64,000 bases of DNA, from positions 203,468-267,467 of the IMG/VR virus record IMGVR_UViG_3300049460_000121; one strand, given 5' to 3'. How positions within the stretch are numbered: position 1 is the first letter of the stretch; each line of letters opens with the position of its first letter. The translations under genes were made by a program, and so were the position numbers. This stretch comes from a virus. Its lineage: Duplodnaviria > Heunggongvirae > Uroviricota > Caudoviricetes. Shown here piece by piece: positions 29,934-63,580 of the stretch. Under the pieces are notes generated by a model. That model saw only the letters and a program-made list of their open reading frames with translations. It was not told the DNA's origin and did not search any database.

Positions 29934-29983
29934 CAAAAAAAGAAAGTCTAGATGCAGGAGCTCACGCTCCTGCATCTATGCTG
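29934..29983. terminator. stereotyped terminator T7 (ACAAAAAAAGAAAG, hairpin TCTAGATGCAGGAGC-tcac-GCTCCTGCATCTA, then TGCTG)
   Basis: Lies between the helicase end and the end of minus gene 29988. Confidence 0.7.
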
Positions 29984-29987
29984 TTTA

Positions 29988-30257
29988 TTATCCCTTAGGC
30001 TTCAGGTTAAGTACGTTATTCACTGGGACCGGTTTGGTGAGTTGGTCGGCGTATGCCACACCAGCCTCATCAAGCACTGCCTGTACGAGTTTGATGAACT
30101 CCTCACTAGGCTTGTTCACCAGGCTGTCGTCGATCATTTTCCGAATCTCCTCAGGACTATGTCCCGTTTGGAACAGGACCTTCGACAGGTGCATTCGAAG
30201 CATCTGTACGGCGAACACCCACGGGATGGTCAACTCTCGTTTCGTATTGTCCCACAT
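29988..30257 (-). CDS. hypothetical protein (89 aa)
   Basis: Tracked ORF; the stop abuts the terminator (TAAACAGCATAGAT). Confidence 0.45.
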   Translation of the reverse strand: MWDNTKRELTIPWVFAVQMLRMHLSKVLFQTGHSPEEIRKMIDDSLVNKPSEEFIKLVQAVLDEAGVAYADQLTKPVPVNNVLNLKPKG

Positions 30258-30258
30258 C

Positions 30259-30681
30259 TTACTTCCCCTTCTTCATGATCGTGTTGAACCAAGCCATGTT
30301 GGACTTGATCTCAGAGCGGGCAACCGACGCCATGGCCGACATCATCAGGTCGCAGTCAGGCATGCTCCAAGTCGCTGGAACTTCAATGCCGTGAGTCTCG
30401 CAGTGATGACGATAGTGCATCAGGATCATGGCTTGATCCGCGAGCATGCCAGGATAGAAGTAACCTTCTTCGAAGATGGCTTTCAGATAGTCCTGTACTG
30501 GCACGTAGCTGGTGATGTTGCCCTTCTCGTCGTGCAGGCGGGCATAGATGTCGTCTACATCCACGTTGCCTTCCAGCACATTCCAGAGGCCTTCGTCACG
30601 GGCACGTTGGAAAGTGAACAGTGCGCCTTCACGATCGTGAAAGTGTTCTTCGTTGTACTTAACTGCGTTTGGGAAACTCAT
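30259..30681 (-). CDS. hypothetical protein (140 aa)
   Basis: Tracked ORF; GGAGG-type SD. Confidence 0.5.
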   Translation of the reverse strand: MSFPNAVKYNEEHFHDREGALFTFQRARDEGLWNVLEGNVDVDDIYARLHDEKGNITSYVPVQDYLKAIFEEGYFYPGMLADQAMILMHYRHHCETHGIEVPATWSMPDCDLMMSAMASVARSEIKSNMAWFNTIMKKGK

Positions 30682-30729
30682 GCCGACCTCCTCGGTCTTA
30701 GGTTGGGGAGGTTGCCCTCCCCGGTTAAA

Positions 30730-31326
30730 TTACTGGTTGGAGTACCAGTCGAAGATAACCTTGGCGTTACCACCAAGTTCATCCCTGGTCTTTACCAGCG
30801 CAGCGTAGGCCGCGTCACCACGACGTTGTACCGAGTAGTCATCCGAATACCCAGTGTGCCAGTCGTTGGCCTCGCACGCCGCCTTGAAAGCTTCCTCAGC
30901 TTCCGTCAATACCCAGTCCGCCATCCGTTTCTCAAACGGCTTGTCGCCCATCAGCTTCGCCCAGCTTTCATAGCCGTGGGTGTTAAGCCAATGCTTGAGA
31001 GGAAGTGGGTCGATGGCCTGGTAGCCAGACTCGTTAGTCCAACTGGCAGGCACGCCTCGATGGAACGTGATGCGCATATACCGCTCAGCGATCACGATCT
31101 TATCCTTCTCCACCTCGATCCGAGTCAAAGGACTCTTCGGAGTGTAGCCTTTCAACACCTCGAAGTTGCTCGACGAGATGTGCAGTTCGATAACCGCGCC
31201 ACCAGCGCCCATCGATTTCGCCAGACGGGGTTCGCAAAGACCAGCAGCGAAAGTGCCACCGATAACGAACATCTCCTTAGTCAGGCCGATGGTGTAGATG
31301 ACGTAGTTGATTGATGAATAATCCAT
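30730..31326 (-). CDS. hypothetical protein (198 aa)
   Basis: Tracked ORF. Confidence 0.5.
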   Translation of the reverse strand: MDYSSINYVIYTIGLTKEMFVIGGTFAAGLCEPRLAKSMGAGGAVIELHISSSNFEVLKGYTPKSPLTRIEVEKDKIVIAERYMRITFHRGVPASWTNESGYQAIDPLPLKHWLNTHGYESWAKLMGDKPFEKRMADWVLTEAEEAFKAACEANDWHTGYSDDYSVQRRGDAAYAALVKTRDELGGNAKVIFDWYSNQ

Positions 31327-31388
31327 GATGCTGACCTCCTCGGTCTCAATAGAACTGGGAGAGGTTATCCCCTCCCAGGTATAGCTAA

Positions 31389-31682
31389 TTACAGGTGGTT
31401 AAATTCCACCCCACGATTGGTGTAAACCAATCCGTCAAGCTCGACCTGTTGGACATCCTCCAACCAAGCCCGCTCAGAACTCCACCCTTCCAGGCGGCCA
31501 ATGAGTTTACCCTCAACATCGAACACAACTGGCAAGCAGTCATCTTCGATCTTCCCGTCATTACTGAAGAACTTAATAGTCCCAGCTTTGACGTAGAATG
31601 ACCCATCCTTTCCAGCGTACTGGATAGGGTTCAAGAAAACCTTGTTTACAGCTTGTTGCAGTTTCATTTCGCCAGCGTTCAT
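31389..31682 (-). CDS. hypothetical protein (97 aa)
   Basis: Start set at MNAGEMK, preceded by GAGGAGG. Confidence 0.5.
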   Translation of the reverse strand: MNAGEMKLQQAVNKVFLNPIQYAGKDGSFYVKAGTIKFFSNDGKIEDDCLPVVFDVEGKLIGRLEGWSSERAWLEDVQQVELDGLVYTNRGVEFNHL

Positions 31683-31711
31683 ACATGTCCTCCTCGGACT
31701 CATTATGGATG

Positions 31712-31748
31712 TTGCATGACCATTATGTATGACTGAAATAAAGTTAAC
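31712..31748 (-). promoter_or_regulatory. promoter-like motif copy (minus reading TTTCAGTCATACATAATGGTCATGCAACATCC)
   Basis: Immediately downstream, in the minus transcription sense, of terminator 31750..31799, and about 50 nt upstream of the ATG at 31682. Confidence 0.5.
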
Positions 31749-31749
31749 T

Positions 31750-31799
31750 GAAAAAAGAAAGGGACATAGGCTAGCGGGAATCCCGCTAGCCGTATGCTG
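31750..31799 (-). terminator. stereotyped terminator T8 (GAAAAAAGAAAGGG, hairpin GGCTAGCGGG-aat-CCCGCTAGCC, then GTATGCTG)
   Basis: The stop codon of 31801..32100 directly abuts it. Confidence 0.7.
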
Positions 31800-31800
31800 T

Positions 31801-32100
31801 TTACGCTTCCTGCTTTTCGTTGAACTTCAGGAAGTCGTTGCCGTTTGACACGTCGAAGGAACGCCAGCCGTTACGAGTGACATAATCCCACACGTTAACT
31901 CGCATCAACCCCCAGGCCACAATCCCGACAAGTTGACGGGGAGTGGTGATATGGTTTGAGTTGTTGTGTACAGGCTCGGCCTCGCGAACGGTGAGATCGA
32001 TACCATCCTTCTTGAGCCATTCGGCAATCTCGACCTCGTTAGTCCCGTCCCACTGGATGGCCTGGAAGACTACCCGACTACGATAGTGAGCGACTGGCAT
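31801..32100 (-). CDS. hypothetical protein (99 aa), tandem paralogue of 32100..32369
   Basis: Shared N-terminal motif YRS....A.QW.G.N.E..E.L. Confidence 0.5.
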   Translation of the reverse strand: MPVAHYRSRVVFQAIQWDGTNEVEIAEWLKKDGIDLTVREAEPVHNNSNHITTPRQLVGIVAWGLMRVNVWDYVTRNGWRSFDVSNGNDFLKFNEKQEA

Positions 32101-32369
32101 TACGCCACCTCTTCGATGCGTTCGTAGTACGTAGCGAACGTCTCGGCCGAGTTGTGGCTGACATGACCTTCATCATCGAGCGTAATGAAGTCGCCTTTCT
32201 TGACGCGGATAGTGCCCCAGTCGGTTGCGATGTGCATACCCATGCCGGTAGGAGACACGTCGTAAACACGACCTTTGTCACCGAGGAACTCTTTCACTTC
32301 GCCGGTGTTGGAACCCACCCATTGAACTGCGTCGATGGTCTTGTTACTGCGGTAACGAGTTTTGCTCAC
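32100..32369 (-). CDS. hypothetical protein (89 aa), tandem paralogue of 31801..32100
   Basis: N-terminus MSKTRYRSNKTIDAVQWVGSNTGEVKEFL. Confidence 0.5.
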   Translation of the reverse strand: MSKTRYRSNKTIDAVQWVGSNTGEVKEFLGDKGRVYDVSPTGMGMHIATDWGTIRVKKGDFITLDDEGHVSHNSAETFATYYERIEEVA

Positions 32370-32958
32370 TCTCAGCCTCCTTCTCTACATTGTAGCCATC
32401 AGTGGTCGACAGTAACGGCTCCAGATGTTCGGAACCGTACGCACGACGCGTATAGAAGACCACCCGGATGCGTTGCTTGATGCTACGCATGTTCTCCAGG
32501 AGTTGCTCCTGTGTCCACTCGAAATCCTCACCGATCAGCTGCTTCGTGATCAGTTCGTCTGCCATCCCCTCAGATTTCAAGAAGTCGGCGAACAGGTCAA
32601 TCAATGTCGACTTACCGCAATTAGGACCGCCGATCACAGCGAAGCCCGTGTGGCGAGGTTCGAAGAGGTGTTGTACTGCCGGACGGACAAGAGGTTTTGG
32701 TGCTGGACGACCCTGGTCCAATACGAACGGAGTGCCCAGGCGGTGTTCGCTGAGGAGGAAGCGTGTACCCACACCCGCTGCAACATCCTCCTCCTTTTCT
32801 CCCGGTAGGTAAGGCTCATTATCGCTGGCCGGCACGTTCGACAGGTCGACGTCGAAGTTGATCTCGCTGAGTATCATGCCAAACTTGCGGGCGATGTAAG
32901 AACGGTTAGTGTGGACGCCTGCGGTGATGATGATGCGTACGATTGTTTTATCAGCCAT
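32344..32958 (-). CDS. P-loop NTPase-like protein (204 aa; Walker A GGPNCGKST in mid-protein)
   Basis: Tracked ORF. The Walker A motif sits near residue 118 and the family is unclear. Confidence 0.45.
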   Translation of the reverse strand: MADKTIVRIIITAGVHTNRSYIARKFGMILSEINFDVDLSNVPASDNEPYLPGEKEEDVAAGVGTRFLLSEHRLGTPFVLDQGRPAPKPLVRPAVQHLFEPRHTGFAVIGGPNCGKSTLIDLFADFLKSEGMADELITKQLIGEDFEWTQEQLLENMRSIKQRIRVVFYTRRAYGSEHLEPLLSTTDGYNVEKEAESEQNSLPQ

Positions 32959-32960
32959 GA

Positions 32961-33146
32961 TTATTCCATCGGAGCCAAACGGTTGCGTTCATAGACGACA
33001 AAGTCACCTACACTGTATTTCCAAAGACGCGCAGTTGGTATCTCGTTCTCAGGAACGTTGAGGTGTTTGGCAAGAGCTGCCACCCCTCCGATCTCATCTT
33101 GGGACTCCGCGTCTTTGTTGTAAACCAGGAACTTGCGTTCAGTCAT
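32961..33146 (-). CDS. small hypothetical protein (61 aa)
   Basis: Tracked ORF in the operon frame. Confidence 0.35.
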   Translation of the reverse strand: MTERKFLVYNKDAESQDEIGGVAALAKHLNVPENEIPTARLWKYSVGDFVVYERNRLAPME

Positions 33147-33765
33147 CCAGGTTACCCGTCCCCATCATCTGGGAACCAAGACCTGGTTCGAGGTAACCGA
33201 TGGTGCGGATAGGCTCTATGCCCGACGTCTGGGAACCCATGATGCGGCTTACAACACCGCGTTCTTGCAGATCAACCGGTTCGCGATCCAACGCCTTCAT
33301 GCGATCCAGCTGCTCCTTGACGTCTGGCGTCAGTGGAAGCATTCGACCCAGGACTTGCTGGTTAGGAGTATCGAGCGCAGCCAGGGTATCGTTATACGCC
33401 TGGTCGTCGATGCGCGGTGGCAACAGTATCGAATCAGGTTGATGATCCGCATTGAAGCCGTGCATTACCACCAACTCCACTTCCTCGCCAGACGACTTAC
33501 GAAAGGCACGACCGATCACCTGAGGGTCGAAACCACCAGCCGAGTTACGACAGCTGGCATGGTGACGCTCTTTCAACTGTTCAGCAAACTCAGCCGTCAC
33601 GAAAGCGTACTGCTTGCTACCGCCACGGTCACTGAAACCGTAGACGTCGTAGCCTTTCAGCTTCATGGCTTCGAGGAGGATCTTAGCGAACTCCTCGTCT
33701 TGACTGTGAAGCTCTACGACGTGGTAGCCGTCCTCAGCCTTGAAATCATCTTGCAGTTTGAACAT
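33139..33765 (-). CDS. hypothetical protein (208 aa)
   Basis: Tracked ORF. Confidence 0.5.
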   Translation of the reverse strand: MFKLQDDFKAEDGYHVVELHSQDEEFAKILLEAMKLKGYDVYGFSDRGGSKQYAFVTAEFAEQLKERHHASCRNSAGGFDPQVIGRAFRKSSGEEVELVVMHGFNADHQPDSILLPPRIDDQAYNDTLAALDTPNQQVLGRMLPLTPDVKEQLDRMKALDREPVDLQERGVVSRIMGSQTSGIEPIRTIGYLEPGLGSQMMGTGNLDD

Positions 33766-34063
33766 GGTCTACTCCGAATCGGTGAATATGTGGGGTTGGT
33801 TTCCAGCCATCCAGGGACAGCGACATCATTTGTTTCAGAATCGGTAACATGGCGATGTGTGCTGCGCGCGGCTGGACGACGTCGGTAAAACCTTTGGGTG
33901 CTGAAACGAACCCTGCCGTGACACGTCGAATGACAGGTGGTTCGCTGAAGTAGCCATCGAAATCCAGGTAGACTCTGGGGGCTTCTAAGCAGCGATAGTT
34001 CACCTTGATGACATTGACGTCCCAAGGAAGGGCTAGCGGTATATGGAACCGCCAGCCACTCAC
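33746..34063 (-). CDS. hypothetical protein (105 aa)
   Basis: Tracked ORF filling the gap between neighbours. Confidence 0.35.
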   Translation of the reverse strand: MSGWRFHIPLALPWDVNVIKVNYRCLEAPRVYLDFDGYFSEPPVIRRVTAGFVSAPKGFTDVVQPRAAHIAMLPILKQMMSLSLDGWKPTPHIHRFGVDHVQTAR

Positions 34064-34065
34064 GA

Positions 34066-34635
34066 CTAGGCGTCCTCGCTGAGCGGTTGGTAATGGGTGA
34101 CGGAGAGCTTGCCGCAGCGCAGGTGGAAGGTGTTGCCGCTGTCACCACGGCGACTGATCGTCATGACGGTGGTCCAACCCAACTTGACTTCTTTCACCAT
34201 GGACATCATCAGGTCGACTTCCACCGAACCATTGCCCAACATCTTGAGTGCATTGAGGACTTCATCACGTCCCTCGATGTTGTAGTTCTTCATGCCTGGA
34301 ATGGCAACGTCCACCACGGGGAGTTCGTTCCACTTACGCAGATACTCCAGCGCCGTTGGATAACTCCAGGCATGTACCATGGTGTCGTCTTTGGTGACGT
34401 CATCTTCGGTCACCAGGCCGCGGCGGTTAGTCGAAGACCAGTCGATGTAGATGACGCGCTTGCGCCAGCCAATGGTGATGGTCCCACTTGGAACTTGAAC
34501 AGCCCACCACGGGGATTCAGCACGGGCGCTGTCGTAGTTCGGATGATCAGGCCAATATTGGTTACGGACCTGATTGATGCCGGTGTGTTCAATCTTGCCG
34601 AGGAACAGCAGGGATTTGACTTCATCGTATTTCAT
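34066..34635 (-). CDS. hypothetical protein (189 aa)
   Basis: Tracked ORF. Confidence 0.5.
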   Translation of the reverse strand: MKYDEVKSLLFLGKIEHTGINQVRNQYWPDHPNYDSARAESPWWAVQVPSGTITIGWRKRVIYIDWSSTNRRGLVTEDDVTKDDTMVHAWSYPTALEYLRKWNELPVVDVAIPGMKNYNIEGRDEVLNALKMLGNGSVEVDLMMSMVKEVKLGWTTVMTISRRGDSGNTFHLRCGKLSVTHYQPLSEDA

Positions 34636-34649
34636 ATTCGAATTCCTTA

Positions 34650-34928
34650 TTACTCGAGGTTCTTGAGGCGTTCTTTGGCGAGCTCGGTGATGTGTTGGAA
34701 GAACACCTCACGAAACTCATCCCTGACGCGACTATGTACGAACTTGTAGATGTCGTTGAGCATCATGTTGTACCGAAGGACATCATCGACCATAGCGGAC
34801 ACTACCGCTTCCGAGAAGTCTTTGGCGTAAGGGGCACCGAGAAGTTTGTCGATACCCTGAAGCTTGAGTTTGAGGTCACCAACCGCAGCGTCGAGAAGAT
34901 CGAGCTGTTCTTTCAGTTCGTTATCCAT
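34650..34928 (-). CDS. hypothetical protein (92 aa)
   Basis: Tracked ORF. Confidence 0.45.
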   Translation of the reverse strand: MDNELKEQLDLLDAAVGDLKLKLQGIDKLLGAPYAKDFSEAVVSAMVDDVLRYNMMLNDIYKFVHSRVRDEFREVFFQHITELAKERLKNLE

Positions 34929-34937
34929 GATGATGTC

Positions 34938-35267: not shown

Positions 35268-35269
35268 GT

Positions 35270-35932: not shown

Positions 35933-35951
35933 GATGTTCCTTATGTCTTGT

Positions 35952-37462: not shown

Positions 37463-37489
37463 GGTGAAACTCCTTGTTAAATAGGGGGA

Positions 37490-38302: not shown

Positions 38303-38320
38303 GTCTTGATTTCCTGTACG

Positions 38321-38360
38321 GAATGAGGGTGTTCATGCTTACAATGTACGACTACAGATC
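38321..38360 (-). promoter_or_regulatory. promoter-like motif copy (minus reading TGTAGTCGTACATTGTAAGCATGAACACCCTCATTC)
   Basis: Directly downstream of the terminator at 38371 and about 50 nt upstream of the ATG at 38302. Confidence 0.5.
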
Positions 38361-38370
38361 TTTACAGTAA

Positions 38371-38417
38371 GGGACATAAAGGCTAGGCGGAAATCCCACC
38401 TAGCTGTGTCTTTACGC
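38371..38417 (-). terminator. GGGACATAAAGG-hairpin (GCTAGGCGG-aaat-CCCACCTAGC)-TGTGTCTTTACGCTG terminator variant
   Basis: Abuts the stop of 38412..38831. Confidence 0.5.
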
Positions 38418-39076: not shown

Positions 39077-39086
39077 GGAGTAGTCC

Positions 39087-39402: not shown

Positions 39403-39458
39403 AACAAAAAAAGAAAGGTAACTGGAGGGATGGCCCTCCAGTGTTAATCAATATTGCA
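39403..39458 (-). terminator. stereotyped terminator (CAACAAAAAAAGAAAGG, hairpin CTGGAGGG-atgg-CCCTCCAG)
   Basis: Lies between 39462..39773 and the GIY-YIG gene. Confidence 0.65.
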
Positions 39459-40150: not shown

Positions 40151-40190
40151 TGATAAGAATGTTGTTACTCCATGTGAATTATGTATGACC
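40151..40190 (-). promoter_or_regulatory. promoter-like motif copy (minus reading TTATGGTCATACATAATTCACATGGAGTAACAACA)
   Basis: Between the terminator hairpin at 40205 and the ATG at 40134. Confidence 0.45.
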
Positions 40191-40204
40191 ATAAAACTTT
40201 TAAC

Positions 40205-40245
40205 AGCATAGACGATGCGGTGGTAAGCCGCATCGTCTATGTATG
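40205..40245 (-). terminator. hairpin ATAGACGATGCGG-tggtaa-GCCGCATCGTCTAT flanked by CAGCATAGA on the plus strand and TATGTATGCT after it
   Basis: Symmetric version of the stereotyped element. Abuts the stop of the HNH gene. Confidence 0.5.
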
Positions 40246-40616: not shown

Positions 40617-40675
40617 ACAAAAAAAAGAAAGGCGTAGACGCCGGGACTCGACGTCCCGGCTATTTGTTACGCTGC
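40617..40675 (-). terminator. stereotyped terminator (ACAAAAAAAAGAAAGG, hairpin GCCGGGAC-tcgac-GTCCCGGC, then TATTTGTTACGCTG)
   Basis: Lies between the HNH gene and 40667..40858. Confidence 0.65.
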
Positions 40676-40930: not shown

Positions 40931-40976
40931 GAGCAATCAGTGGGATTGTTCATGCTAACTATGTATGACTGAAAAG
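40931..40976 (-). promoter_or_regulatory. promoter-like motif copy, near-identical to 3191..3232 (TTTTCAGTCATACATAGTTAGCATGAACAATCCCACTG)
   Basis: 38-nt near-identity to the copy at 3191. Confidence 0.5.
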
Positions 40977-40990
40977 AATTTGGATCGAAT

Positions 40991-41431: not shown

Positions 41432-41495
41432 ATGTAGCCTCAAAATAAAAGAGTCTGTCAGAGGGAGTATCCCCTCTGACATATAGTAACGAGGA

Positions 41496-45250: not shown

Positions 45251-45310
45251 TCTAGTGGGTGGATTCAAGTGTGTAATGTGTGATTGTAAAAGGTATGACT
45301 GCAAAATAAA
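45251..45310 (-). promoter_or_regulatory. promoter-like motif copy (minus reading TTGCAGTCATACCTTTTACAATCACACATTACACACTTGAATCCACCCACTAG)
   Basis: More divergent copy. Overlaps the T-tract of the upstream terminator. Confidence 0.4.
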
Positions 45311-45345
45311 AAGTGTCGAGGTGGGTTTCCCCACCTCTATGCCGC
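45303..45345 (-). terminator. stereotyped terminator (AAAATAAAAAG, hairpin GAGGTGGG-tttc-CCCACCTC, then TATGCCG)
   Basis: Abuts the stop of 45346. Confidence 0.6.
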
Positions 45346-46772: not shown

Positions 46773-46782
46773 CTGTACCTCC

Positions 46783-46827
46783 AAAAGAATAAAGTGCGAT
46801 GCGGGACAATGTCCCGCATCTATGCCG
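46783..46827 (-). terminator. stereotyped terminator (CAAAAGAATAAAG, hairpin GATGCGGGAC-aat-GTCCCGCATC, then TATGCCG)
   Basis: Abuts the stop of 46828. Confidence 0.65.
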
Positions 46828-47838
46828 TTAGTTGACCGTGGCGTCGCCAGCAGTGAGCGGAACCATCAGCTGAGGATAGATCTCATGCTGATAGCCTTCT
46901 TCGTCCGGCAGCACGTTGTTGGCATCTGGCACCAGGACCTGGATAACGCGCAGACCTTCGGTGATTTCGATACCAGGCAGGAAACCATGCGCCGACAGCG
47001 CCTTTGGATCAGCCTCGATTGCACGCATGCGCAGTGCCTGACCGTTAGACAGTTTACCGCAGCGCTCATTGAGTACCGTGAAGTCGAACTCATCATCCTC
47101 GGAAGCCATGGTGATGTAGTTGTCCACGAACACGCCCAGCGTACGAGCACTGATGCCGTGTACCAGACTGATCACTTCGTAACCAATCTTGGATGTGGCG
47201 CCTTTGCTGAACGCACGATCATAGCCACCTTCTTCAGTAGCAAAGATGGTCGTGACCGCATAGCCCTGCGCGGCGAACAATGCTTCATCTTCAGCCTGAG
47301 CGGCTGCGAAGTTGATGGCACGGACGCAGTTGATCAGGAAGTCTTTGTCCTGCTTGGTGGCTTCGGTAGCAGCCATGAGGTATTCGCGAATGGTGACGCC
47401 CTTAATCACGTATTCCAGGTTAGAGGCGATGTCGTAGATCTGGTGGTTGTTGAGTAGCGTACCAGCCACCGGCACCAGTGTAGCCAGGTCACGCAAGTCC
47501 TGTACGGACACGAGGTTGGTGAAGTCGCCGAAGCTTAGGGTGTATTGCTTATCCTGAGGATAGCTCAACCACAGCGCTTCAGCGGCCTTGAGTTCTTCTG
47601 CCAGGCCAGGGTGCGTCTCCACATCTTGCGGGAAACACTTGGCCAGCGAGTGGTCGATGAGGTAGTCCGAGAAGTCCTTTTGGGTCTCTTCGGTGTAACC
47701 GTCGTCGAGGTTGTAAGCGTTAAACACCACCCAGAAGTTGAAGTCAATCAGGGCAATGAAACCTATCTGGAAGCATACGAATACTTCTGTGCCTTTGATG
47801 TTGCCGATAAGTAGTTGTTCGTTGATGTTGTCGCTCAT
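46828..47838 (-). CDS. hypothetical protein (336 aa)
   Basis: Tracked ORF. Confidence 0.55.
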   Translation of the reverse strand: MSDNINEQLLIGNIKGTEVFVCFQIGFIALIDFNFWVVFNAYNLDDGYTEETQKDFSDYLIDHSLAKCFPQDVETHPGLAEELKAAEALWLSYPQDKQYTLSFGDFTNLVSVQDLRDLATLVPVAGTLLNNHQIYDIASNLEYVIKGVTIREYLMAATEATKQDKDFLINCVRAINFAAAQAEDEALFAAQGYAVTTIFATEEGGYDRAFSKGATSKIGYEVISLVHGISARTLGVFVDNYITMASEDDEFDFTVLNERCGKLSNGQALRMRAIEADPKALSAHGFLPGIEITEGLRVIQVLVPDANNVLPDEEGYQHEIYPQLMVPLTAGDATVN

Positions 47839-47920: not shown

Positions 47921-49537
47921 TTACTCGAGGCGGTCGATGACGTAGTCAGTCAAACCGAACTCAGTGCGCACTTGCACACGACGCGCAACGCTGGTGTCCA
48001 GACCCACAGCCTGGTTAGGCGTGGACGTGTCCATGACGCCTTTCAGCGAGTACGCTTGGATCACACGTTCGGCTTCAGTCAACTCTGGACGGAGCAGTTC
48101 TGCGAACAGTGCCAACGAACCGTCATCACGGGGATCGCGAAGACCTTCCACCAGCAAGATGTCCAGCATGTACTTGTTGGCACGTTCGCCACCAGTCCAG
48201 CACGCAGGCGGTACAGCGATACCCACGATCTTCAGCAGCTGGCCTGGGACGATACCCATGAAGCGTGCTGGCTGAGGTTCGTTGGTGGTGTGCCATGCGA
48301 ACGGGTTACGCTCTTCTTCTTTGTCGTAGAACCACAGACGACCAGCATCAGGATTCTTCGGAGCAGAGAAGTAGATGTACTTGTCCACGTTACCGGCGTA
48401 GGCGCTGAACTCCAACGCAGTCGGCAGAACCTTCTCCTTGAACTTCTCCCAGGAGATCTTGCCACCGTCAGCCGGCTTCTGAGACACCTCAACCTTGGCT
48501 TCCGCTTGCTTGGTAACCAGGTCACCGAACAGTGGAACTTCCTTTGCAGCCGCTTCTGGAGCAACTGGTGGTACCCAGGTCTTGCGCACCTCATCGAGGG
48601 ATGCCAGACGGCGACCCAAGTCAACATCGCTCAGACCCAGTTCTTTGAAGATCCGCTGTGCCACCGTCACGTTACCTTCGGTAGGTGCAGCCGACTTCTG
48701 ACGGTAGAACTCTGGATCGACCTTCATGACGAAAGTACGCAGAGCGGCTTCTGGCAGACGACCGTTGGCAATACCACCCAACAGCAGTTCGCCTTCCACG
48801 TTGTTGGCAATGGCCGCGAACGATGGAGCGACGGTAGCCGATTCACGGTAGACCAGGTTACGGACTTGGCCATCGTTCTTGCCATCCAACGATTTCAAGA
48901 AACCGTGGAACCATTCCAGCTGAGGCAACCAACGCTCCAGTGCTTTACCGGCAGCCTGTACCTGGTTCACTGCCGAAGCTGCAACCTGTACGGTGAAGGC
49001 CTTGACGGCTTTCTCGAGTAGCTCGAAGCTGGTTTGGGAAGCACCAACCTTGGTGACTACCTGGTGTGGCAGGACCACGGAGTTCACAACCGGTGCGATC
49101 AGGTAGTGAGTCCAGCCAGCAGTCTCTCCAGTGCCCCAGACTTCGTGTTCGGTGTAGAAGCGGGCGCTGATACCGGAACGCAGGACAAGCTTCTCCAGCG
49201 CTTCGATAGAGGCCTTGTACTCTTCCGGCGCGATGCTGGAATCCCACAGAGCGGAAACCAGTTCGCCTTCAGGAGTAACGAAGACCATGTGGCCGAAACG
49301 CTCGAAGAACGTACGGCAGCTGGAGCAGTTGTGGTGTTGTTGCGCTTCTTCCGGGAACGCTTTACGGTAAACCGTAGACAGACCCTTCGACTTGGTTTCA
49401 AACAACGCAGGACCGTACTTCTCCATGCGCTCATTGAAGGTGGCTTGCACTTGAACAACCAGTGCGTCGAATACTGAACCCGAACCGATTTCGGCTACGG
49501 TTGCTTGGGATACTTGGGTCAATTGCTCTTCGCTCAT
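47921..49537 (-). CDS. hypothetical protein (538 aa)
   Basis: Longest gene of the minus array. The plus-strand shadow ORF 47882..49021 was rejected. Confidence 0.55.
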   Translation of the reverse strand: MSEEQLTQVSQATVAEIGSGSVFDALVVQVQATFNERMEKYGPALFETKSKGLSTVYRKAFPEEAQQHHNCSSCRTFFERFGHMVFVTPEGELVSALWDSSIAPEEYKASIEALEKLVLRSGISARFYTEHEVWGTGETAGWTHYLIAPVVNSVVLPHQVVTKVGASQTSFELLEKAVKAFTVQVAASAVNQVQAAGKALERWLPQLEWFHGFLKSLDGKNDGQVRNLVYRESATVAPSFAAIANNVEGELLLGGIANGRLPEAALRTFVMKVDPEFYRQKSAAPTEGNVTVAQRIFKELGLSDVDLGRRLASLDEVRKTWVPPVAPEAAAKEVPLFGDLVTKQAEAKVEVSQKPADGGKISWEKFKEKVLPTALEFSAYAGNVDKYIYFSAPKNPDAGRLWFYDKEEERNPFAWHTTNEPQPARFMGIVPGQLLKIVGIAVPPACWTGGERANKYMLDILLVEGLRDPRDDGSLALFAELLRPELTEAERVIQAYSLKGVMDTSTPNQAVGLDTSVARRVQVRTEFGLTDYVIDRLE

Positions 49538-54754: not shown

Positions 54755-54761
54755 ATTGATC

Positions 54762-55172: not shown

Positions 55173-55189
55173 TACTTACTTCCTCAGTA

Positions 55190-55215: not shown

Positions 55216-55219
55216 GTAA

Positions 55220-56518
55220 TCAATCAATCACAACGTGTGGCATGAACTGTTCATCGCCCAGGTCATTCACCGCACCACCAAACTCACGGATAGCGATGCC
55301 GGCCATGGTTGCACGTTTACCGTCTTTGAATGGCTGTGGTGCCATCCAGGCGCCGACGATGAAGTTACGGTCACCGTTGACGCGGCCAGGGGCTTGATAC
55401 TCCTGGAAGATCACAGCTTCGTCACCGTAAGGACCGTCGGTACTTTCCAGAGCAACATCGATGCTGTTCAGGATAGCCACGTTGGCCGACATACGACCGA
55501 CCTTTGGCTTACGGACAACTTTGCCATTACCGCCGACCAGACTGTTGCGGTGAAGAGACGACTTCAGGAATGGCAGGCCATCGAGGCTGATGTGACCCAT
55601 GCTTTCCATCTGGGTCAGCAGAGCAAAGATACCCTTGTTCGACAGAAACCAAGTCCAGGCCGGGTTCAGCATCGCAACGTCATTACACCAGTTCTGCCAA
55701 TGCAGGATCGACTTCGAATGCGTCACCACCATCTCTTCCCACGGCACTAGCGCAAACGCACCATCCAGTACGATGTTGTATGCTTCGAACGGTTTGTCCT
55801 TACGCAGGTCTTCGTACTGCATGGCTTTCATGTCGACCATGAAGGCATTGCAATGATCGGCCAGCAACTGAGTGATGATTTCGCAGGTAGCCGAGTCGTC
55901 AATCGCATTGCTGTCGAACACCACGCCGAACGCATGATTCGTACGCAGATACATCGTCGACAGAGTTTCGGTCATCTTGGCGAACCAGTCGTTACACTGC
56001 TGATCTTCGTGCCAGTGTTGTCTGATCAGGTAATCATTCAGCGCAGTGGATTCGAAGAGCATTGTCGGCGTGTCGGCATTGAGCTCGTAGATACCAGTAA
56101 CCTTTTCAGCTACTGGATCAATTGCCAAGTCAAACCGCGAATAAAGCGGCTGGCCCAACATGTTGCGTTGCTCAAAGGTCCAGGCTGCGTAATCGATGAA
56201 AGATTCACCTGCCGGACTGCGCAGCATGTTGCAATCAAAGACCTGCTTGAGGACATCACGGTTGGCGAAAGCGAAGGTCAGCGCTTCCACCATCTTGGCG
56301 TAGGCCGCCTCACTGACCCGAGCGATTTCGTCACGCAACTTCTGACTCAACACGTAGAACGGCAGGTTACCTGCGTTCGTGATGTGGTAGTCAAACAGAT
56401 ACTTGGCGTCTTCGCTGAGTTCGCCCTTGTCGGTGTAGAACTCGTGCAGGTGGGGGAGGCTTTCAGACAACAGTTGCGGGATGTTGACTTGTACAGCTTT
56501 GCGTTCAATACGGACCAC
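55220..56518 (-). CDS. hypothetical protein (432 aa); weak, unverified resemblance to ATP-grasp/glutathionylspermidine-synthase-like enzymes
   Basis: Large tracked ORF. I could not confirm the domain call from the sequence alone. Confidence 0.5.
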   Translation of the reverse strand: MVRIERKAVQVNIPQLLSESLPHLHEFYTDKGELSEDAKYLFDYHITNAGNLPFYVLSQKLRDEIARVSEAAYAKMVEALTFAFANRDVLKQVFDCNMLRSPAGESFIDYAAWTFEQRNMLGQPLYSRFDLAIDPVAEKVTGIYELNADTPTMLFESTALNDYLIRQHWHEDQQCNDWFAKMTETLSTMYLRTNHAFGVVFDSNAIDDSATCEIITQLLADHCNAFMVDMKAMQYEDLRKDKPFEAYNIVLDGAFALVPWEEMVVTHSKSILHWQNWCNDVAMLNPAWTWFLSNKGIFALLTQMESMGHISLDGLPFLKSSLHRNSLVGGNGKVVRKPKVGRMSANVAILNSIDVALESTDGPYGDEAVIFQEYQAPGRVNGDRNFIVGAWMAPQPFKDGKRATMAGIAIREFGGAVNDLGDEQFMPHVVID

Positions 56519-56520
56519 GA

Positions 56521-57153: not shown

Positions 57154-57159
57154 CTATCA

Positions 57160-58369: not shown

Positions 58370-58385
58370 GTTGACCTCCTCGGTC

Positions 58386-59198: not shown

Positions 59199-59261
59199 GG
59201 GCGTATCCCTCTGTATAGGTGACGTGAGTGTCCAGACGATAATGTATTGCCCATTTCGGTT

Positions 59262-59310
59262 TAAAAGAAAACGGAGGAGCTGGCGCCCGAAGGCGCCGTT
59301 CCGTGTTACT
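59262..59310 (-). terminator. stereotyped terminator (TTAAAAGAAAACGG, hairpin GGCGCC-cgaa-GGCGCC with extended stem, then GTTCCGTGTTACTTG)
   Basis: Abuts the stop of 59306..60742. Confidence 0.55.
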
Positions 59311-60742
59311 TGGTGTCAGTACTGACCAACGGCGTAGCAGCGCCGAAGATAGTAGTGGCACGCGAACCGTTCCAACGCTCAGCTTCGATCAGTTGGATCA
59401 GCTGAGGGTTGTTCTTCAGAGCGTTTGCCTTGGCAACGATGGCAGAGGCTTCAGCAATACCTTTGGCGGTAATACCTTCGGATTCAGCCAGCATCTGGTT
59501 CTTCTTGGCGTCGGCTTCACCTTGCATCTTCGCGACGTAGGCCTTGGCATCAGCCAGCGCCTGTTGCTCACGATTCTTCGCTGTATCCACCGCTACGAGT
59601 GAACGCACCTTCTCTTCAATGGTCGCTTCGTACGCATCGGAGAAGTTGATGTCTTCCACCTGGACAGAAGTCACATTGACGAATGCTGGTACGCCGGCAC
59701 GGATTCGCTTGGTGAGCGCCATGACGAACGACGTACGGTCACTGGCCAATGTGGCCGCCTCGAATTGACCGAAGGCATTCTCGACTTCACTTGGGGTGAT
59801 CTTGCGGATGAACCGATCAGTCACGCCCTCAAGAGACAGTGCCGTACGGTACATATCGCCCACCAACCCAGGTTGGACAGTCCAGGTCACCGATACCCGC
59901 ATGGTAGCCGGTTGGGTATCCTTGGAATACGCCGAGAGGCTCTGGAAGCTATCCGTCCAGGTCTGGAGGCTGACGCGCTTCACTACGTGGAAGACAGGCA
60001 GCTTGATGTGGATGCCAGGCTCTTCCACCCCCACCATCTTACCGCCGGCGAGCACTATCCCGCGCTCGGTTTCGTTGATGGTGTAAATCGAGGACGCGAC
60101 CGTGCAAAGCAGGATGATCGCAATGATGGCAGCCACGACCGACTTGATCGGGTTACGCTTGATCTTCTCGAGGAAGGAGTACTTGTAGCCGGGTGTTGGT
60201 TCGAAGTTCATTGTGTCGCTTTCCTTACTGTTTGGGGTTACCACCTCGGGTTCCTCCGAGATGGGTGCTTCTTCCACCACCGCTTGTTCCGTCAGTGGGT
60301 ACTGGGGTTCAGGCGGAGGCGGAGGAGGTGCTGGCGGTATTGCGGCTACTGAAACTGGCCGCAATGGCCGTGGATCTGGTTCTGCCGGAATTTCGATCGG
60401 CTTTAGGTAGGCTGAAGTAGCCCTGCCTGGTAACCCATGAATGTGGTGTAGATCACCGAACATCATGAGTACACCACCAGACTGCATGAAGTCTGAGTAG
60501 TCCAGGTCAGGGTCCAGCCGGTTGAAGTGCTGGCTGATAGGTGGTGCTACCCACAACCGTGCACCTGATGAACGTCCGATACGGTTGTTGAACGATCTGG
60601 ACAGGTATTCTGGCCAGTTGCTCTTTTCACCGAAGTCGCTGGGGTATGTGCTCAGGACAGCATCTTCTTCTACCGTCGTCCACCATACGACCAGGGTGTT
60701 TTGTTTATCCCGCCAGCGTTGCAGCTGTTGCGAATACTCCAT
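59306..60742 (-). CDS. SPFH/band-7 (HflK/HflC-like) domain membrane protein with an about 190-aa N-terminal domain and a Pro-rich linker (478 aa)
   Basis: TM helix, then INETERGIVLAGGKMVGVEEPGIHIKLPVFHVVKRV, which matches the HflK/C core (ERGVV.RFGK...PGLHF..PF). The N-terminal half is unrelated, and the linker is PPAPPPPPPEP. Confidence 0.6.
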   Translation of the reverse strand: MEYSQQLQRWRDKQNTLVVWWTTVEEDAVLSTYPSDFGEKSNWPEYLSRSFNNRIGRSSGARLWVAPPISQHFNRLDPDLDYSDFMQSGGVLMMFGDLHHIHGLPGRATSAYLKPIEIPAEPDPRPLRPVSVAAIPPAPPPPPPEPQYPLTEQAVVEEAPISEEPEVVTPNSKESDTMNFEPTPGYKYSFLEKIKRNPIKSVVAAIIAIILLCTVASSIYTINETERGIVLAGGKMVGVEEPGIHIKLPVFHVVKRVSLQTWTDSFQSLSAYSKDTQPATMRVSVTWTVQPGLVGDMYRTALSLEGVTDRFIRKITPSEVENAFGQFEAATLASDRTSFVMALTKRIRAGVPAFVNVTSVQVEDINFSDAYEATIEEKVRSLVAVDTAKNREQQALADAKAYVAKMQGEADAKKNQMLAESEGITAKGIAEASAIVAKANALKNNPQLIQLIEAERWNGSRATTIFGAATPLVSTDTK

Positions 60743-60743
60743 C

Positions 60744-61199
60744 TCAGGACTTCTTCTCGAAGATGCGTTTGATGTGGTCGGTTTTGGTACCGACCATGTT
60801 GGCGCACAGCTTCGGCATCTGCCGTCCGACTGACTGCGGGTAAGTGTAACTATACCCGATGTCCTTCTTCACCGAATCCTCGGCCAGGATGTCGACGATG
60901 TTGGTATTGAAGCGCACAGCCAGAGCGTTACCGGCATACTTATCGTCGTTGGTGATGTCCTTCGCGATCTCGCTGGCGATGGCCGACAGGCGCGACATCT
61001 CGTCAACGCCATCCATGTACATGGTGGTGATTTTAACTGCCTGGGCGACAAAGTACTTGCAGGACAGTGGGGTGATACGGAGGCTTTCGTTAGGCAGATC
61101 GGAATCGACCTTGACGAACTTACCGCGCGGGTCTTCAGCCGCTACAGCCAGACTCGAAGCCAAACAGCTACCGAGGATAATAGCTTTAATGATGTTCAT
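60744..61199 (-). CDS. secreted/periplasmic protein (151 aa; cleavable signal peptide)
   Basis: N-terminus MNIIKAIILGSCLASSLAVAAED. Translationally coupled to the SPFH gene. Confidence 0.5.
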   Translation of the reverse strand: MNIIKAIILGSCLASSLAVAAEDPRGKFVKVDSDLPNESLRITPLSCKYFVAQAVKITTMYMDGVDEMSRLSAIASEIAKDITNDDKYAGNALAVRFNTNIVDILAEDSVKKDIGYSYTYPQSVGRQMPKLCANMVGTKTDHIKRIFEKKS

Positions 61200-61238
61200 A
61201 CTTGCGCTCTCGCATAGAGTTTAAGATTTACCACCGCA

Positions 61239-61715
61239 TCAGCAATTGCCGATACGTCCCAAAGCTTTGTGGACAGGGTCAGCAGATGCTTCGATGACTT
61301 CGAAGATGTCAACAGGTTCCAGAAGACCCACCGCTTGCGTTGACTTACGCAAACCGCTTTCGTCTTCGAGTTCTGTGTTGGCCATCAAACCCATCTTCGA
61401 CATCTTGAAGCTCATGATCGGACCGAGCATTTCTTTACTGTCGCGACGACGAACGCATTGACCGAGCTGAGGAATCCAAGGTTGGACATCCAAGCGCTCG
61501 ATCACCTTCTGGATATCGCTGACGTACTGGTTCTCATCACCCAGTACAGCGTCCTCGTTGATACTGCGCTCAAGACGAGCGATGATCTCGGAGTTCATAC
61601 TGCGGTGATGGGTACGAGCTACTTGAGCGATAAGCTCACGCATGCCGTCTGGGAGACGGACTACGAACTTGTCGGCGGTACGGCTGGAATAGACAGCTTG
61701 TTTGATCGGGCGCAT
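61239..61715 (-). CDS. Arc/MetJ-type ribbon-helix-helix DNA-binding regulator with C-terminal extension (158 aa)
   Basis: [35 protein letters not shown] matches the Arc-family RHH signature (RS.NSEI). Confidence 0.6.
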
Positions 61716-61732
61716 TGGTTGTCCTCCACGGA

Positions 61733-62077
61733 CTAGATATAAAGTTCGGTGTATTCTTCGGTGGTGCAGACCGGAATGGTCCAGGTGAAGTCTTTAAGGG
61801 TAACGGAGATCGTCGCTGCTCTGAGGCCGATTAACGCTTGCGGCATTTGTTTCTTCAGTGCATCGACAGCATGCTGGCTCAACTTCGGGTCAATGAAGAA
61901 GCCATGACTGCGATTGAGGTGCGGTTGCTTACGAATGGTTTCGGCCACGTAGGTAGCCCAATCGCGAGCACGGCGTTTCTGGTTGAAGTCTGTGACTGCG
62001 TTGTAACGCAGTACGAAGGCGGCTACGAGACCAACCAGCACCAGAACCAATATTGCGGAGATGACTGGATCAGACAT
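61733..62077 (-). CDS. small membrane protein (114 aa; N-terminal TM)
   Basis: Start at [23 protein letters not shown], preceded by AAGGAG. Confidence 0.45.
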
Positions 62078-62471
62078 CAGCTTTCTCCTTACGGTAGACG
62101 TTGTGCCACTGGTGCAAGGACTTGTAGTTGTTGTCCCGCATCTCTGTGCCGTTCCAGTCCTTGCCTTCGTGCTCGAAGTCACGATAGTGGCGCCAGATGA
62201 AGTTGGCAATGGCACGACTGCGGAAGCGACCTTCGGTGCAGTGAACCACGATGTTGTCGCCCGCTTCGTGAGCACGTTCCACGAACTCGCAGATACGCTG
62301 GCAAACGATATCAGGGATACGAGCATCGGGTTCCACGGTTACGTCGTAGACTTCCTTATGGTCAATACCCAGACGAGCGTAGTTGCTGTGACCAAAGCCC
62401 ACTCGCAAAACGCGAGCAGGTTCTGTCAACGCGACGGCGGCTTCCACCGACATGAATTGTACTGTTGGCAT
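62070..62471 (-). CDS. protein-tyrosine/dual-specificity phosphatase-like protein (133 aa; CX5R motif VHCTEGRFRS)
   Basis: PTP signature HC.{5}R(S/T). Confidence 0.55.
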   Translation of the reverse strand: MPTVQFMSVEAAVALTEPARVLRVGFGHSNYARLGIDHKEVYDVTVEPDARIPDIVCQRICEFVERAHEAGDNIVVHCTEGRFRSRAIANFIWRHYRDFEHEGKDWNGTEMRDNNYKSLHQWHNVYRKEKADV

Positions 62472-62480
62472 ATTGCTTCC

Positions 62481-63458
62481 TTAGTAATGAACGTCTACTA
62501 CAGAGACGATGGTGTCTTCACTCAGCGCTTCCAAAGCGTCCAAGCCTTTGTGAAGATGTTCTTCAGTGGCCATGAGGTCATCGGTGTCGTACACCACACC
62601 ACCCACGATCCAGGCGGACAGGGTTTTAGCCTTCAATGGACCGAGTCGTTCCAGCAACGCGTCACTGAACCGGTGTTCTTCCATGGAGAAGACGCCTAAG
62701 TCAGGAAACCCGTGGTCAGCCCGCAGCGAATCGATGAACTTGCGGAAACTCAGGTACACGTCAAGCCAGCGACCTTTAATGTACCCGTCGATAGCCTCGG
62801 GCCCAACCTGATCCATTAACCCTGGGTACATCTGGTGGAAGTATTCACGGAAGGTAGGAACAACGATACCCTTCTCAGCCAATGCTTTACGCATGTTGAT
62901 CGCAGCTTCCTCAACCGCAGGAATCTCAGCACCCATCCGCTCCCAATCCACTTCACGAACCGGTAGGGACGACCAAGTACCAGGCTCGTTATCGGAACAT
63001 GGAATACCCGCAGCCAGAGCAGCCAGTGTCAGCTTGGGCATACCGCCGACATGGGCATCCAAGGTATCGGGTTCCTTGGCCTTCAGGTAAGTGTTCCAGC
63101 GACCACCAGGTACCCACCAGTCCCACAGCCCTTTACGATGAACCGTATACAGGCAGTAGTCATGATCCTTCTTGTAGGTCAGGACATAACTGGCTGGACC
63201 AAAGTCAACGTGCCAGGGTGGAGTGGCATCAGCTTCCGGCATGACGATGAACGAATCGAGGAAGTCTTTACCGACCCGACTCTCCACGCTCTGGATCATG
63301 TCCATGATTTGGTGGAGCATGATGCCAGCCGCGGTACTGGCTGGGAACCGATGACAAAGGATCAGGTCGCATGGACCATCTTCTTCGCCGTATTTACCGA
63401 GTAACATCATCAGTGACGGACGGTCTTCTGGACCGTAGACCATAATTCCCCTATGCAT
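62481..63458 (-). CDS. hypothetical protein (325 aa)
   Basis: Start at MHRGIMVYG, preceded by AGGAG. Confidence 0.5.
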   Translation of the reverse strand: MHRGIMVYGPEDRPSLMMLLGKYGEEDGPCDLILCHRFPASTAAGIMLHQIMDMIQSVESRVGKDFLDSFIVMPEADATPPWHVDFGPASYVLTYKKDHDYCLYTVHRKGLWDWWVPGGRWNTYLKAKEPDTLDAHVGGMPKLTLAALAAGIPCSDNEPGTWSSLPVREVDWERMGAEIPAVEEAAINMRKALAEKGIVVPTFREYFHQMYPGLMDQVGPEAIDGYIKGRWLDVYLSFRKFIDSLRADHGFPDLGVFSMEEHRFSDALLERLGPLKAKTLSAWIVGGVVYDTDDLMATEEHLHKGLDALEALSEDTIVSVVDVHY

Positions 63459-63460
63459 AG

Positions 63461-63525
63461 AGGTGCTCCTGGGTGAGGGTGTTGTCTGTATAATAATGTA
63501 GCATTGTAAAGTTTTACTCGACGAA
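63461..63525 (-). promoter_or_regulatory. degenerate copy of the promoter-like motif (minus reading ...GCTACATTATTATACAGACAACACCCTCACCCAGGAG)
   Basis: Shares the ACACCCTCA C-rich tail with the copy at 38321. Immediately downstream of the terminator at 63532. Confidence 0.35.
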
Positions 63526-63531
63526 AATGGC

Positions 63532-63580
63532 ACAAAAAAAGAATAGCAGTGAGTGGGTTTCCCCACTCACTGCGTTATCG
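63532..63580 (-). terminator. stereotyped terminator (CACAAAAAAAGAATAG, hairpin CAGTGAGTGGG-tttc-CCCACTCACTG, then CGTTATCGCTT)
   Basis: Lies between the small gene at 63584 and 62481..63458. Confidence 0.65.

Follow-up and report, generated by a model that had tools for sequence, protein, structure and literature searches.

The hairpins that stand between genes in a 64,000-nucleotide (nt) stretch of viral DNA (IMG/VR record IMGVR_UViG_3300049460_000121, positions 203,468 to 267,467; Caudoviricetes), called the window below at its full length, are very probably factor-independent transcription terminators of the type known from phiKZ-like (Chimalliviridae) phages, most of them built for both directions. 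An earlier note, made from the letters alone, had described here a minus-strand composite in at least 15 copies, with the stop codon followed by a GCATAG(A/G) box, a GC-rich hairpin, and a stereotyped U-tract. By its anatomy, this minus-strand signal appears to be a phiKZ-type terminator read from the opposite strand and joined to an ordinary T-run. Such an architecture, including the mirror element 5′ of the hairpin and the bidirectional use, has already been described for phiKZ and for 201phi2-1; what is new is the phage, which is very divergent.

Hairpins were listed in the window at a threshold of 7 or more perfect pairs with 5 or more G-C pairs, giving 25, and, with three of these moved from coding to intergenic after start-codon correction, 18 are intergenic and 7 coding. 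Each of the 18 strong intergenic hairpins lies at the end of a gene, 2 to 25 nt past the stop codon, and the proposal that such elements mark the ends of transcription units is supported. A stable GC-rich hairpin is found shortly after a stop codon at every coordinate that the earlier note listed, with folding energies of -18 to -35 kcal/mol and z scores of -2.2 to -7. The flanks carry a further signal. Of the 36 intergenic flanks, 15 have TATG straddling the 3′ stem end, where 0.017 to 0.04 per flank is expected (P from 1e-17 to 3e-12), as against 0 of the 14 flanks of coding hairpins, so the motif is by no means equally frequent inside coding regions. YTATGCYGY occurs 9 times against an expected 2.5 +/- 1.45, a count reached in none of 100 shuffles. 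The enrichment of GCATAGR taken alone is mild (19 against 11 +/- 3.6), and 8 of the 19 copies adjoin a strong hairpin.

Two kinds of tail follow these hairpins. The U-run tail, CC-UUUC-UUUUUUU-G, is confined to minus-sense elements: a hairpin with a U-rich run nearby, as in canonical Rho-independent terminators, is seen in 11 of 18 minus-sense elements and in 0 of 7 plus-sense ones (Fisher p = 0.008), and a generic terminator scan also picks up several of the U-run copies. That the U-tract is stereotyped is borne out, since the 11-mer CTTTCTTTTTT is present in 6 exact copies (2609, 4474, 29936, 31751, 39407, and 40621), all on the minus strand and all intergenic, against 0 in 100 dinucleotide-preserving shuffles; CCTTTCTTTTTT, with up to 2 mismatches allowed, occurs 11 times against 3.0 +/- 1.8 expected. 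The second tail is of phiKZ type, with the consensus Y-Y-T-A-T-G-C-Y-G-T-T, and is used as the sense tail, without a U-run, by all five plus-strand terminators that have a recognizable tail, which follow late or replication genes, and by four minus-strand ones. At the convergent plus/minus junctions at 2.6, 4.5, and 29.9 kb, a single hairpin serves both sides, with TATGCTGT as the tail of the plus-strand gene and a U-run behind the minus-strand one.

Read on the minus strand, the full form consists of the stop codon, ACAGCATAGA, a GC stem-loop-stem, TCTATGC, and CCTTTCTTTTTTTG. In many U-run copies the TCTATGC between stem and run is present in a degenerate version, for example TGTGC (2627), TCTAGAC (29949), GTCTACGC (40640), and CTATGTC (31769). 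The repetition of the element holds, but not its count as a composite: a full GCATA-like box, hairpin, and U-tract are found together at 6 sites (2606, with GCATAAA; 4473; 29934; 31750, with GCATAC; 45303; and 46783). Hairpin and U-tract without GCATAG are found at 39403, 40617, 59262, and 63532, and the U-tracts at 45303, 46783, 59262, and 63532 are of a different, looser kind. The stems themselves are diverse (GCCGGGGC, TGCAGGAGC, GGCTAGCGGG, GATGCGGGAC, and others), and only some resemble GGAGG/CCTCC.

The position of the GCATAGA box 5′ of the hairpin follows from the palindrome. Reverse-complemented, the minus-strand (A)CAGCATAGA gives TCTATGCTGT, found on the plus strand immediately 3′ of the hairpin; because the hairpin is palindromic, a plus-strand tail of phiKZ type turns into (A)CAGCATAGA when the minus strand is read. 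GCATAGA was thus misread as an independent upstream box, being the reverse complement of a TCTATGC located 3′ of the hairpin on the opposite strand. The CATAAAG sequences at 5677, 23452, and 38371, taken in the earlier note for variants of the same composite, are arranged the other way around: on the sense (minus) strand the hairpin comes first and CTTTATG follows, with the motif 3′ of the hairpin. On its own strand GCATAGA pairs with a TATGC or TGTGC copy at 4486, 31769, 23459, 40207, and 2627, and it is without a pairing partner at 45318, 46798, and 13770. Elongation of the stem as the sole reason for the 5′ GCATAGA was rejected on account of these three unpaired copies, and it is contradicted in phiKZ too, where the element is unpaired at 15946 and 42923 of locus L128 and at 12423 of locus L006.

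Because of its proteins, we place the window in an uncultivated and very divergent phiKZ-like (Chimalliviridae) jumbo phage. It encodes a divergent DnaB-type helicase (PF20307) whose top database relative is that of Pseudomonas phage pPa_SNUABM_DT01 (hereafter DT01; 35% amino acid identity), with about 290 phiKZ-like phages ranking next, as well as a protein that weakly matches the internal head proteins of phiKZ and several paralogous virion proteins of the phrog_1037 family, arranged in an array. A megablast search with 12 kb of the window against 50,697 phage records gave no nucleotide match. The phrog_1037 virion structural paralogues, at least six in number, stand in tandem on both strands (9512-15859, plus; 22475-23455, minus), as is typical of phiKZ-like phages with their families of paralogous head proteins. 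The plus-strand genes include helicases, the head-protein candidate, the virion paralogues, and a tail fiber, and the minus strand carries, from 30 to 64 kb, a long array of mainly small genes without assigned function. The G+C content is 53%, versus 37% in phiKZ. A generic sigma-70 promoter scan found fewer sites in the window than in shuffles, a scarcity that would fit a phage working without host-type promoters. In nucleus-forming phages the relevant polymerases are phage-encoded and not the host enzyme, as established for phiKZ. A tRNA scan and an Rfam scan of the window both returned nothing.

IMG/VR contains two close relatives, 70-89% identical in nucleotides: a contig of 112 kb and one of 264 kb, IMGVR_UViG_3300044878_000136. 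The RNA polymerase genes lie outside the window, and the homologue of phiKZ gp123 is known from the syntenic 264-kb relative (locus L005), where it stands with the major capsid protein directly upstream of the DnaB orthologue; it is 27% identical to phiKZ gp123 (E = 1e-61), and a pairwise alignment shows 7 of the 14 pocket residues to be the same. In phiKZ, the non-virion RNA polymerase (nvRNAP) has gp123 as its beta-like subunit, which binds the TATG of late promoters on the non-template strand (PMC12809450).

The terminators of phiKZ are well described. Putzeys et al. (2024, PMC10914365) reported 61 intrinsic terminators consisting of a stem-loop and TTAT, with the motif BCCYCCCCHWWDGGGRRGGBYTTATKYYGT and with 3′ ends determined by ONT-cappable-seq. 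For 201phi2-1, the corresponding study (Microb Biotechnol 2024, PMC11512511) gives a motif A (n = 59) that is the phiKZ motif and 15 bidirectional termination sites; in 21 terminators a motif B occurs along with motif A and lengthens the hairpin. RNA 3′ ends map to the terminator motif in phiKZ (PMC10914365) and likewise in 201phi2-1 (PMC11512511). Our direct comparison covered 100 kb of phiKZ and 40 kb of DT01, and both show the same layout as the window. TATG stands at the stem end in 33 of 74 hairpin flanks of phiKZ (P = 8e-24) and in 10 of 32 of DT01, and the tail consensus is the same across the three genomes, reading YTATG-C-Y-G-T-T-T-A in the window and TTATG-Y-Y-G-T-T-(A/T)-A in phiKZ. 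Across 26 aligned elements, the phiKZ consensus is A-AACATAA-GCCCTCCC-loop-GGGAGGGC-TTATGTTGTTAA, with the 5′ mirror element often coming right after a TAA stop. The DT01 form, GCATAGAG-stem-loop-stem-CTCTATGC(TGT), is almost letter for letter that of the window. A covariance model (R1), built on the 26 phiKZ elements only and run over the whole window with filters off, gave 10 matches at E up to 10, all of them on the hairpins discussed here; the strongest fell at 4486 (E about 0.002 on either strand), 27290 (0.006), and 23459 (0.04), with 4 below 0.05, although these E-values are rough owing to a short calibration.

The likeness to the phiKZ terminator is one of layout and tail: the GC-rich hairpin directly past the stop codon, the tail (YTTATG-YY-GTT in phiKZ and YYTATG-C-Y-GTT here), the 5′ (A)ACATAA mirror element that makes the whole element palindromic, and the use at convergent junctions, where phiKZ also has variants with TATGTC and a T-run. 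Four differences are to be set against this. The stem is nearly fixed in phiKZ (CCYCCCC/GGGRRGG) and free in the window, so that a conserved stem is not among the shared traits; TAT is usually preceded by C here (TCTATG) and by T in phiKZ (TTTATG); at 53% G+C the motif is much more conspicuous against its background; and the CCTTTCTTTTTTTG run on one strand is very uniform here. As for 201phi2-1, the pairing of GCATAGA with TCTATGC at 4486, 31769, 23459, and 40207 elongates the hairpin as motif B does, bidirectional termination sites are reported there as they are proposed here, and we infer that the 5′ CATA(A/G)A element corresponds to motif B; unlike motif B as described there, the element also occurs here without a partner (45318 and 46798), beyond any role in stem elongation. 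With canonical bacterial Rho-independent terminators, and with bidirectional ones in particular, the elements share the GC hairpin and the minus-strand U-run, and an A-run on the opposite strand would likewise let one hairpin serve convergent genes; unlike those, the second direction here is provided by the TATGCTGT tail and not by a U-run, and the U-run sequence is nearly invariant among copies.

The two tail types, TATGCTGT and the CCTTTCTTTTTTTG run, might, though with low probability, serve different polymerases or temporal classes, as suggested by the split in U-runs between the strands (0 of 7 plus, 11 of 18 minus). A strict rule assigning the U-run to early genes and TATG to late genes was rejected, since the phiKZ late genes 125 and 174 end in TATGTC and a T-run, and it is also contradicted by the major capsid gene of DT01, which ends in TATGCTGCC and a T-rich run.

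Perfect hairpins of the form GCATAGAG-GC stem-loop-CTCTATGC-CG(T) were seen in other IMG/VR contigs as well (L057 at 2790-2825 and 13517-13552; L022, L041, L043, and L053). Several of the contigs with perfect GC hairpins span 228-277 kb, and one hairpin has an A-rich 5′ flank, that is, a U-run on the other strand. A scan of IMG/VR for GCATAGA-N14-40-TCTATGC gave mostly chance matches, with about 10 perfect GC hairpins among the matches listed. To judge by these contigs, the GC-rich variant of the element appears to be widespread in uncultivated large phages.

The close relatives show which parts of the element are held constant. The claim that the flanks are conserved beyond what a generic hairpin and U-run would require is supported, with flanks fixed and stems changing between genomes of 70-89% identity. 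At 2627 a compensatory C-G to T-A change has occurred in the stem in both relatives with the flanks conserved, and at 27290 the same type of change is found in L002, a locus of the 264-kb relative. Three unrelated hairpins occupy the 5683 site in the three genomes, and a conserved YTATGACTGAGGAGTCGAAA comes after each. At 31769, L002 has a different hairpin in the same layout (GCATATAG..CTATATGC and TCTTTCTTTTTT, also given as GCATATAGCCTAGGC-loop-GCCTAGGCTATATGC followed by TCTTTCTTTTTT). In two cases the loop is reverse-complemented while arms and flanks are identical (4486-4520 against L005, GTAGT/ACTAC; 29949-29978 against L002, GTGA/TCAC); these flips are small inversions between the arms of an inverted repeat. 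Retention of structure and flanks with the stem sequence left free argues for a function of the flanks and against simple copy-and-paste repeats.

The most likely view of function is that a GC-rich RNA hairpin would form 2-25 nt past the stop codon, with one or the other tail following, and that the phage's own multisubunit RNA polymerases would terminate at a hairpin with either tail, a step suggested by homology and by the anatomy of the elements. Of the extra roles proposed in the earlier note (RNase processing, antitermination factor binding, or a phage RNA polymerase pause or termination signal), the last fits best, although GCATAGA had been assigned to the wrong strand logic. The tails that face antisense within one-directional arrays would be insulators against antisense transcription, because a polymerase whose promoter core is TATG alone would often start on the wrong strand; two-way terminators at gene boundaries would limit both antisense transcripts and head-on collisions. 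In the one-directional arrays of the window, TATG tails are found on 6 of 15 antisense flanks (P from 1e-7 to 1.5e-5) versus 9 of 21 sense flanks, and in phiKZ on 8 of 19 (P = 1.5e-6) versus 23 of 41.

Several observations weigh against terminators as the full account. Antisense TATG is about as common as sense TATG, contrary to what would be expected of a tail that served sense termination alone. About half of the antisense TATG cases are partnerless, including the three copies in the window and the three in phiKZ named above, and therefore stem elongation cannot be their only reason; the unpaired 5′ GCATAGA at 45318 and 46798 is not explained by it. The stems are diverse here, as against the near-invariant stem of phiKZ, and only some copies score with the phiKZ model. 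In several copies the T7 run starts 8-13 nt past the GC core, a long distance for a canonical terminator if the weak TATGC extension is not taken as part of the stem.

The window also contains two sets of promoter-like sites. TATG(A/T) without a hairpin is present on the plus strand 18-53 nt upstream of plus genes at 3250, 7211, 8257, 8832, 24774, and 27350. Within this set TATGAGTTAAC occurs twice, at 3250 and at 27350, the latter copy being conserved in the relatives, and CCTATGTAGAAC at 8257 resembles the phiKZ late promoter P119L (GCTATGTAGACAG). By their sequence and placement these are candidate nvRNAP promoters. The second set is a module of about 49 nt on the minus strand (3193-3241, 7157-7195, 31707-31745, 38320-38368, 40163-40201, 40937-40985, and 45288-45300), made up of a T-rich stretch, (C)AGTCATACATA(A/G)T, and (C/T)AGCATGAAC. 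It is always intergenic and upstream of minus genes, often 5-25 nt past a terminator U-run, and is a candidate for an early or middle promoter of this phage.

This brings up the question of whether the TATG next to the hairpins is itself a promoter. On such a view each element would be a terminator-promoter composite, possibly acting besides termination, from which nvRNAP fires outward: transcription would stop at the hairpin and restart at once, serving the next gene on the sense side and yielding antisense RNA on the other. We consider this improbable, even though the bases are right. TATG is necessary for initiation by phiKZ nvRNAP, with G as +1 (PMC4666361), and gp123 binds it as non-template single-stranded DNA (PMC12809450); the lineage has a gp123 homologue with half of the pocket residues retained; and hairpin-less TATG stands upstream of plus genes, virion-protein genes among them, in one case in a P119L-like form. 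Outward promoters on both sides would also explain the missing orientation bias, and at 5683 the placement is plausible, with TATGACTGAGGAG after the hairpin, 17 nt ahead of an ATG, conserved though the hairpin has been replaced. However, the context differs, hairpin-adjacent copies reading TATG-C-Y-G-T and the candidate promoters TATG-A or TATG-T, and the former are often wrongly oriented for any gene. At convergent junctions the TATG faces the antisense of the neighboring gene, and such sites often face no gene, while at 27290, 31769, 38382, and 40207 another promoter-like motif intervenes between TATG and the next gene; in either setting a promoter role is implausible. Moreover, the validated P119L has no upstream hairpin, and no start sites at terminators are reported in the phiKZ transcriptome paper (PMC10914365) or in that on 201phi2-1 (PMC11512511). 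A related and equally speculative idea, to which we give little weight, is that an elongating polymerase, once past a hairpin, would likewise have TATG read by its gp123 pocket, resulting in a pause, termination, or re-initiation, so that one code would both start and stop transcription. The words pause and elongation do not occur in the structural paper on gp123 (PMC12809450).

Two other explanations concern how the elements arose and at what level they are recognized. The shared flanks might reflect common descent and the spread of a mobile regulatory cassette, a recombination point for gene swaps, rather than selection at each position; we think this doubtful as the cause of the shared flanks. 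The precedent is the PeSLs of T4-type phages, composite conserved promoter-terminator motifs that mediate modular shuffling (PMC2839356, PMC4122927). As in those phages, intergenic stem-loops and promoter modules are repeated in a variable small-gene region and gene replacements adjoin them: the stems fall into sub-families (2627/29949, 4486/40640, 31769/34031/38382, and 45318/63546), the promoter-like module (families D1 and D2) follows several terminators, and homology to the 264-kb relative (L002) breaks at elements three times (29984|30614, 31403|31816, and about 38283), which suggests modular gene exchange there. Between the hairpins at 31355 and 31769, where the window has a cassette with one 104-amino acid gene, the relative has about 1.2 kb of unrelated DNA instead. 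The hairpins and the 49-nt module may together form PeSL-like terminator and promoter cassettes, although the phage family, the promoter type, and the polymerase are different and a role in shuffling is suggested here by the three breakpoints alone. Yet stems differ far more than flanks, both among copies and among orthologues, which is the reverse of what copy-and-paste would leave, and the same tail in phiKZ and DT01, at about 27-35% protein identity, requires selection. In any case, spread as a cassette concerns evolution, not molecular function, and is compatible with termination. A processing or stability site at the RNA level, where GCAUAGA 5′ of the hairpin is bound by a protein or RNase, the stem is cut by RNase III, or an antitermination factor binds, strikes us as very unlikely. 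The 5′ motif does lie 2-8 nt past the stop in the sense RNA and is conserved unpaired at 45318 and 46798, and the authors of the 201phi2-1 study speculate that elongated stems resist antitermination (PMC11512511). But no result favors RNase processing or antitermination-factor binding, Rfam gives no match, stems of 8-16 bp are short for RNase III, and the motif lies 3′ of the hairpin as often as 5′, which fits a two-tailed DNA palindrome better than an oriented RNA box. We return to the phiKZ-type two-way terminators in describing the individual elements.

Three lie at convergent junctions and are probable two-way terminators. At 2607..2658, between a DnaB-like gene (plus) and small genes (minus), the hairpin 2627-2648 has the minus tail AGTGTGCCTTTCTTTTTTTG and the plus tail TTTATGCTGC. 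The fullest copy is at 4472..4523, with ACAGCATAGA, GCCGGGGC-loop-GCCCCGGC, TCTATGC, and CCTTTCTTTTTTTG on the minus strand, the tail TCTATGCTGT on the plus strand, and a folding energy of -34.6 kcal/mol. At 29934..29984, where an SNF2 helicase gene (plus) meets the start of the minus array, the minus tail is TCTAGACTTTCTTTTTTTG and the plus tail again TCTATGCTGT. A further convergent junction, at 22428..22468, has the plus-strand terminator that closes the array of virion-protein genes, a hairpin followed by TTTATGCTGT (R1 model E 0.13).

Among the remaining plus-strand elements, 9453..9485 is a 14-bp hairpin between two plus genes with a degenerate tail, TCTAGTCTGT, and no TATG, and 27288..27325 is a hairpin followed by CTATGCTATA after a plus gene, with the separate promoter-like TATGAGTTAAC 30 nt downstream. 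GCATAGA and a 12-bp hairpin stand between plus genes at 13767..13797 (stop 13760-13762, next ATG 13820), with the sense tail CTTATCC and the antisense tail TCTATGCC. The element at 23449..23486 has a TATG tail on both strands, its hairpin 23459-23476 being followed by TTTATGTTGT on the minus strand and CGTATGCTAA on the plus strand. At 40203..40245, likewise two-way, the 14-bp palindrome CATAGACGATGCGG..CCGCATCGTCTATG has TATGCTGT as its minus tail and TATGTATGC as its plus tail. Within the minus array, the hairpin 31769-31791 (element 31749..31800) has the minus tail TATGTCCCTTTCTTTTTT and the antisense plus tail GTATGCTGT, followed by a promoter-like AGTCATACATAAT. The elements at 45303..45345 (GGCATAGA, hairpin, and GACACTTTTTATTTTG on the minus strand; antisense plus tail CTATGCCGC) and 46782..46828 (CGGCATAGA, hairpin, and GCACTTTATTCTTTTG; antisense plus tail CTATGCCGT) are the two in which GCATAGA is unpaired on the minus strand.

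The others are minus-strand terminators. A terminator with a TATG tail at 5674..5709 (hairpin 5683-5709, then CTTTATGACTGAGGAG, 17 nt ahead of the next ATG) could double as a promoter. At 38375..38404 the hairpin is followed by CTTTATGTCCC without a U-run, at 39405..39442 by TACCTTTCTTTTTTTG with neither GCATA nor TATG, at 40618..40660 by GTCTACGCCTTTCTTTTTTTTG, in which TCTACGC is a degenerate TCTATGC, and at 41441..41481, which is intergenic with the start codon corrected to 41431, by GACTCTTTTATTTTG. The weakest copy, at 59260..59302 (z -2.2), has a GGCGCC-TTCG-GGCGCC core followed by CCGTTTTCTTTTAAA and no GCATA, and the 12-bp hairpin at 63533..63573 is followed by TATTCTTTTTTTG, also without GCATA. 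Five elements of the same kind were absent from the first list (22428-22468, 27288-27325, 40203-40245, 41441-41481, and 9453-9485).

Two neighboring regions deserve mention. A stretch of 741 nt at 24065-24805 has no open reading frame (ORF) of 60 or more amino acids and is 76-80% conserved in the two relatives. It holds two plus-strand units of GCAGCATAAA and a hairpin, has a stem at about 24137-24180 with compensatory changes in both relatives, shares the 15-mer GTTCGCAGCATAAAC with the 2606 element, and gave no tRNA or Rfam match; it may contain a small ORF of about 51 amino acids from the ATG at 24137, non-coding RNAs, or both. The region from 40.7 to 64 kb seems to be a hyperplastic stretch of small genes particular to this lineage; among its genes are one resembling glutathionylspermidine synthase (55220-56518) and one with an SPFH domain (59306-60742). 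IMG/VR searches with three of its proteins (46828-47838, 47921-49537, and 59306-60742) found no relatives, although both related contigs cover the rest of the window.

For an uncultivated and divergent phiKZ-like phage, the elements give a reliable map of transcription-unit ends. They also show that the phiKZ terminator signature, tail and mirror copy together, persists where proteins are about 27-35% identical and where G+C has moved from 37% to 53%, which argues that the tail is read by the phage transcription machinery and does not simply follow from AT-richness. Against the GC-rich background a little-discussed point becomes visible: TATG tails are enriched on antisense flanks within one-directional arrays, and such a tail is identical to the promoter core of nvRNAP. 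If one TATG code did serve for both starting and stopping, the TATG on both sides of the hairpins, whatever the direction of the genes, would amount to polymerase-specific two-way insulators or to outward-firing promoters.

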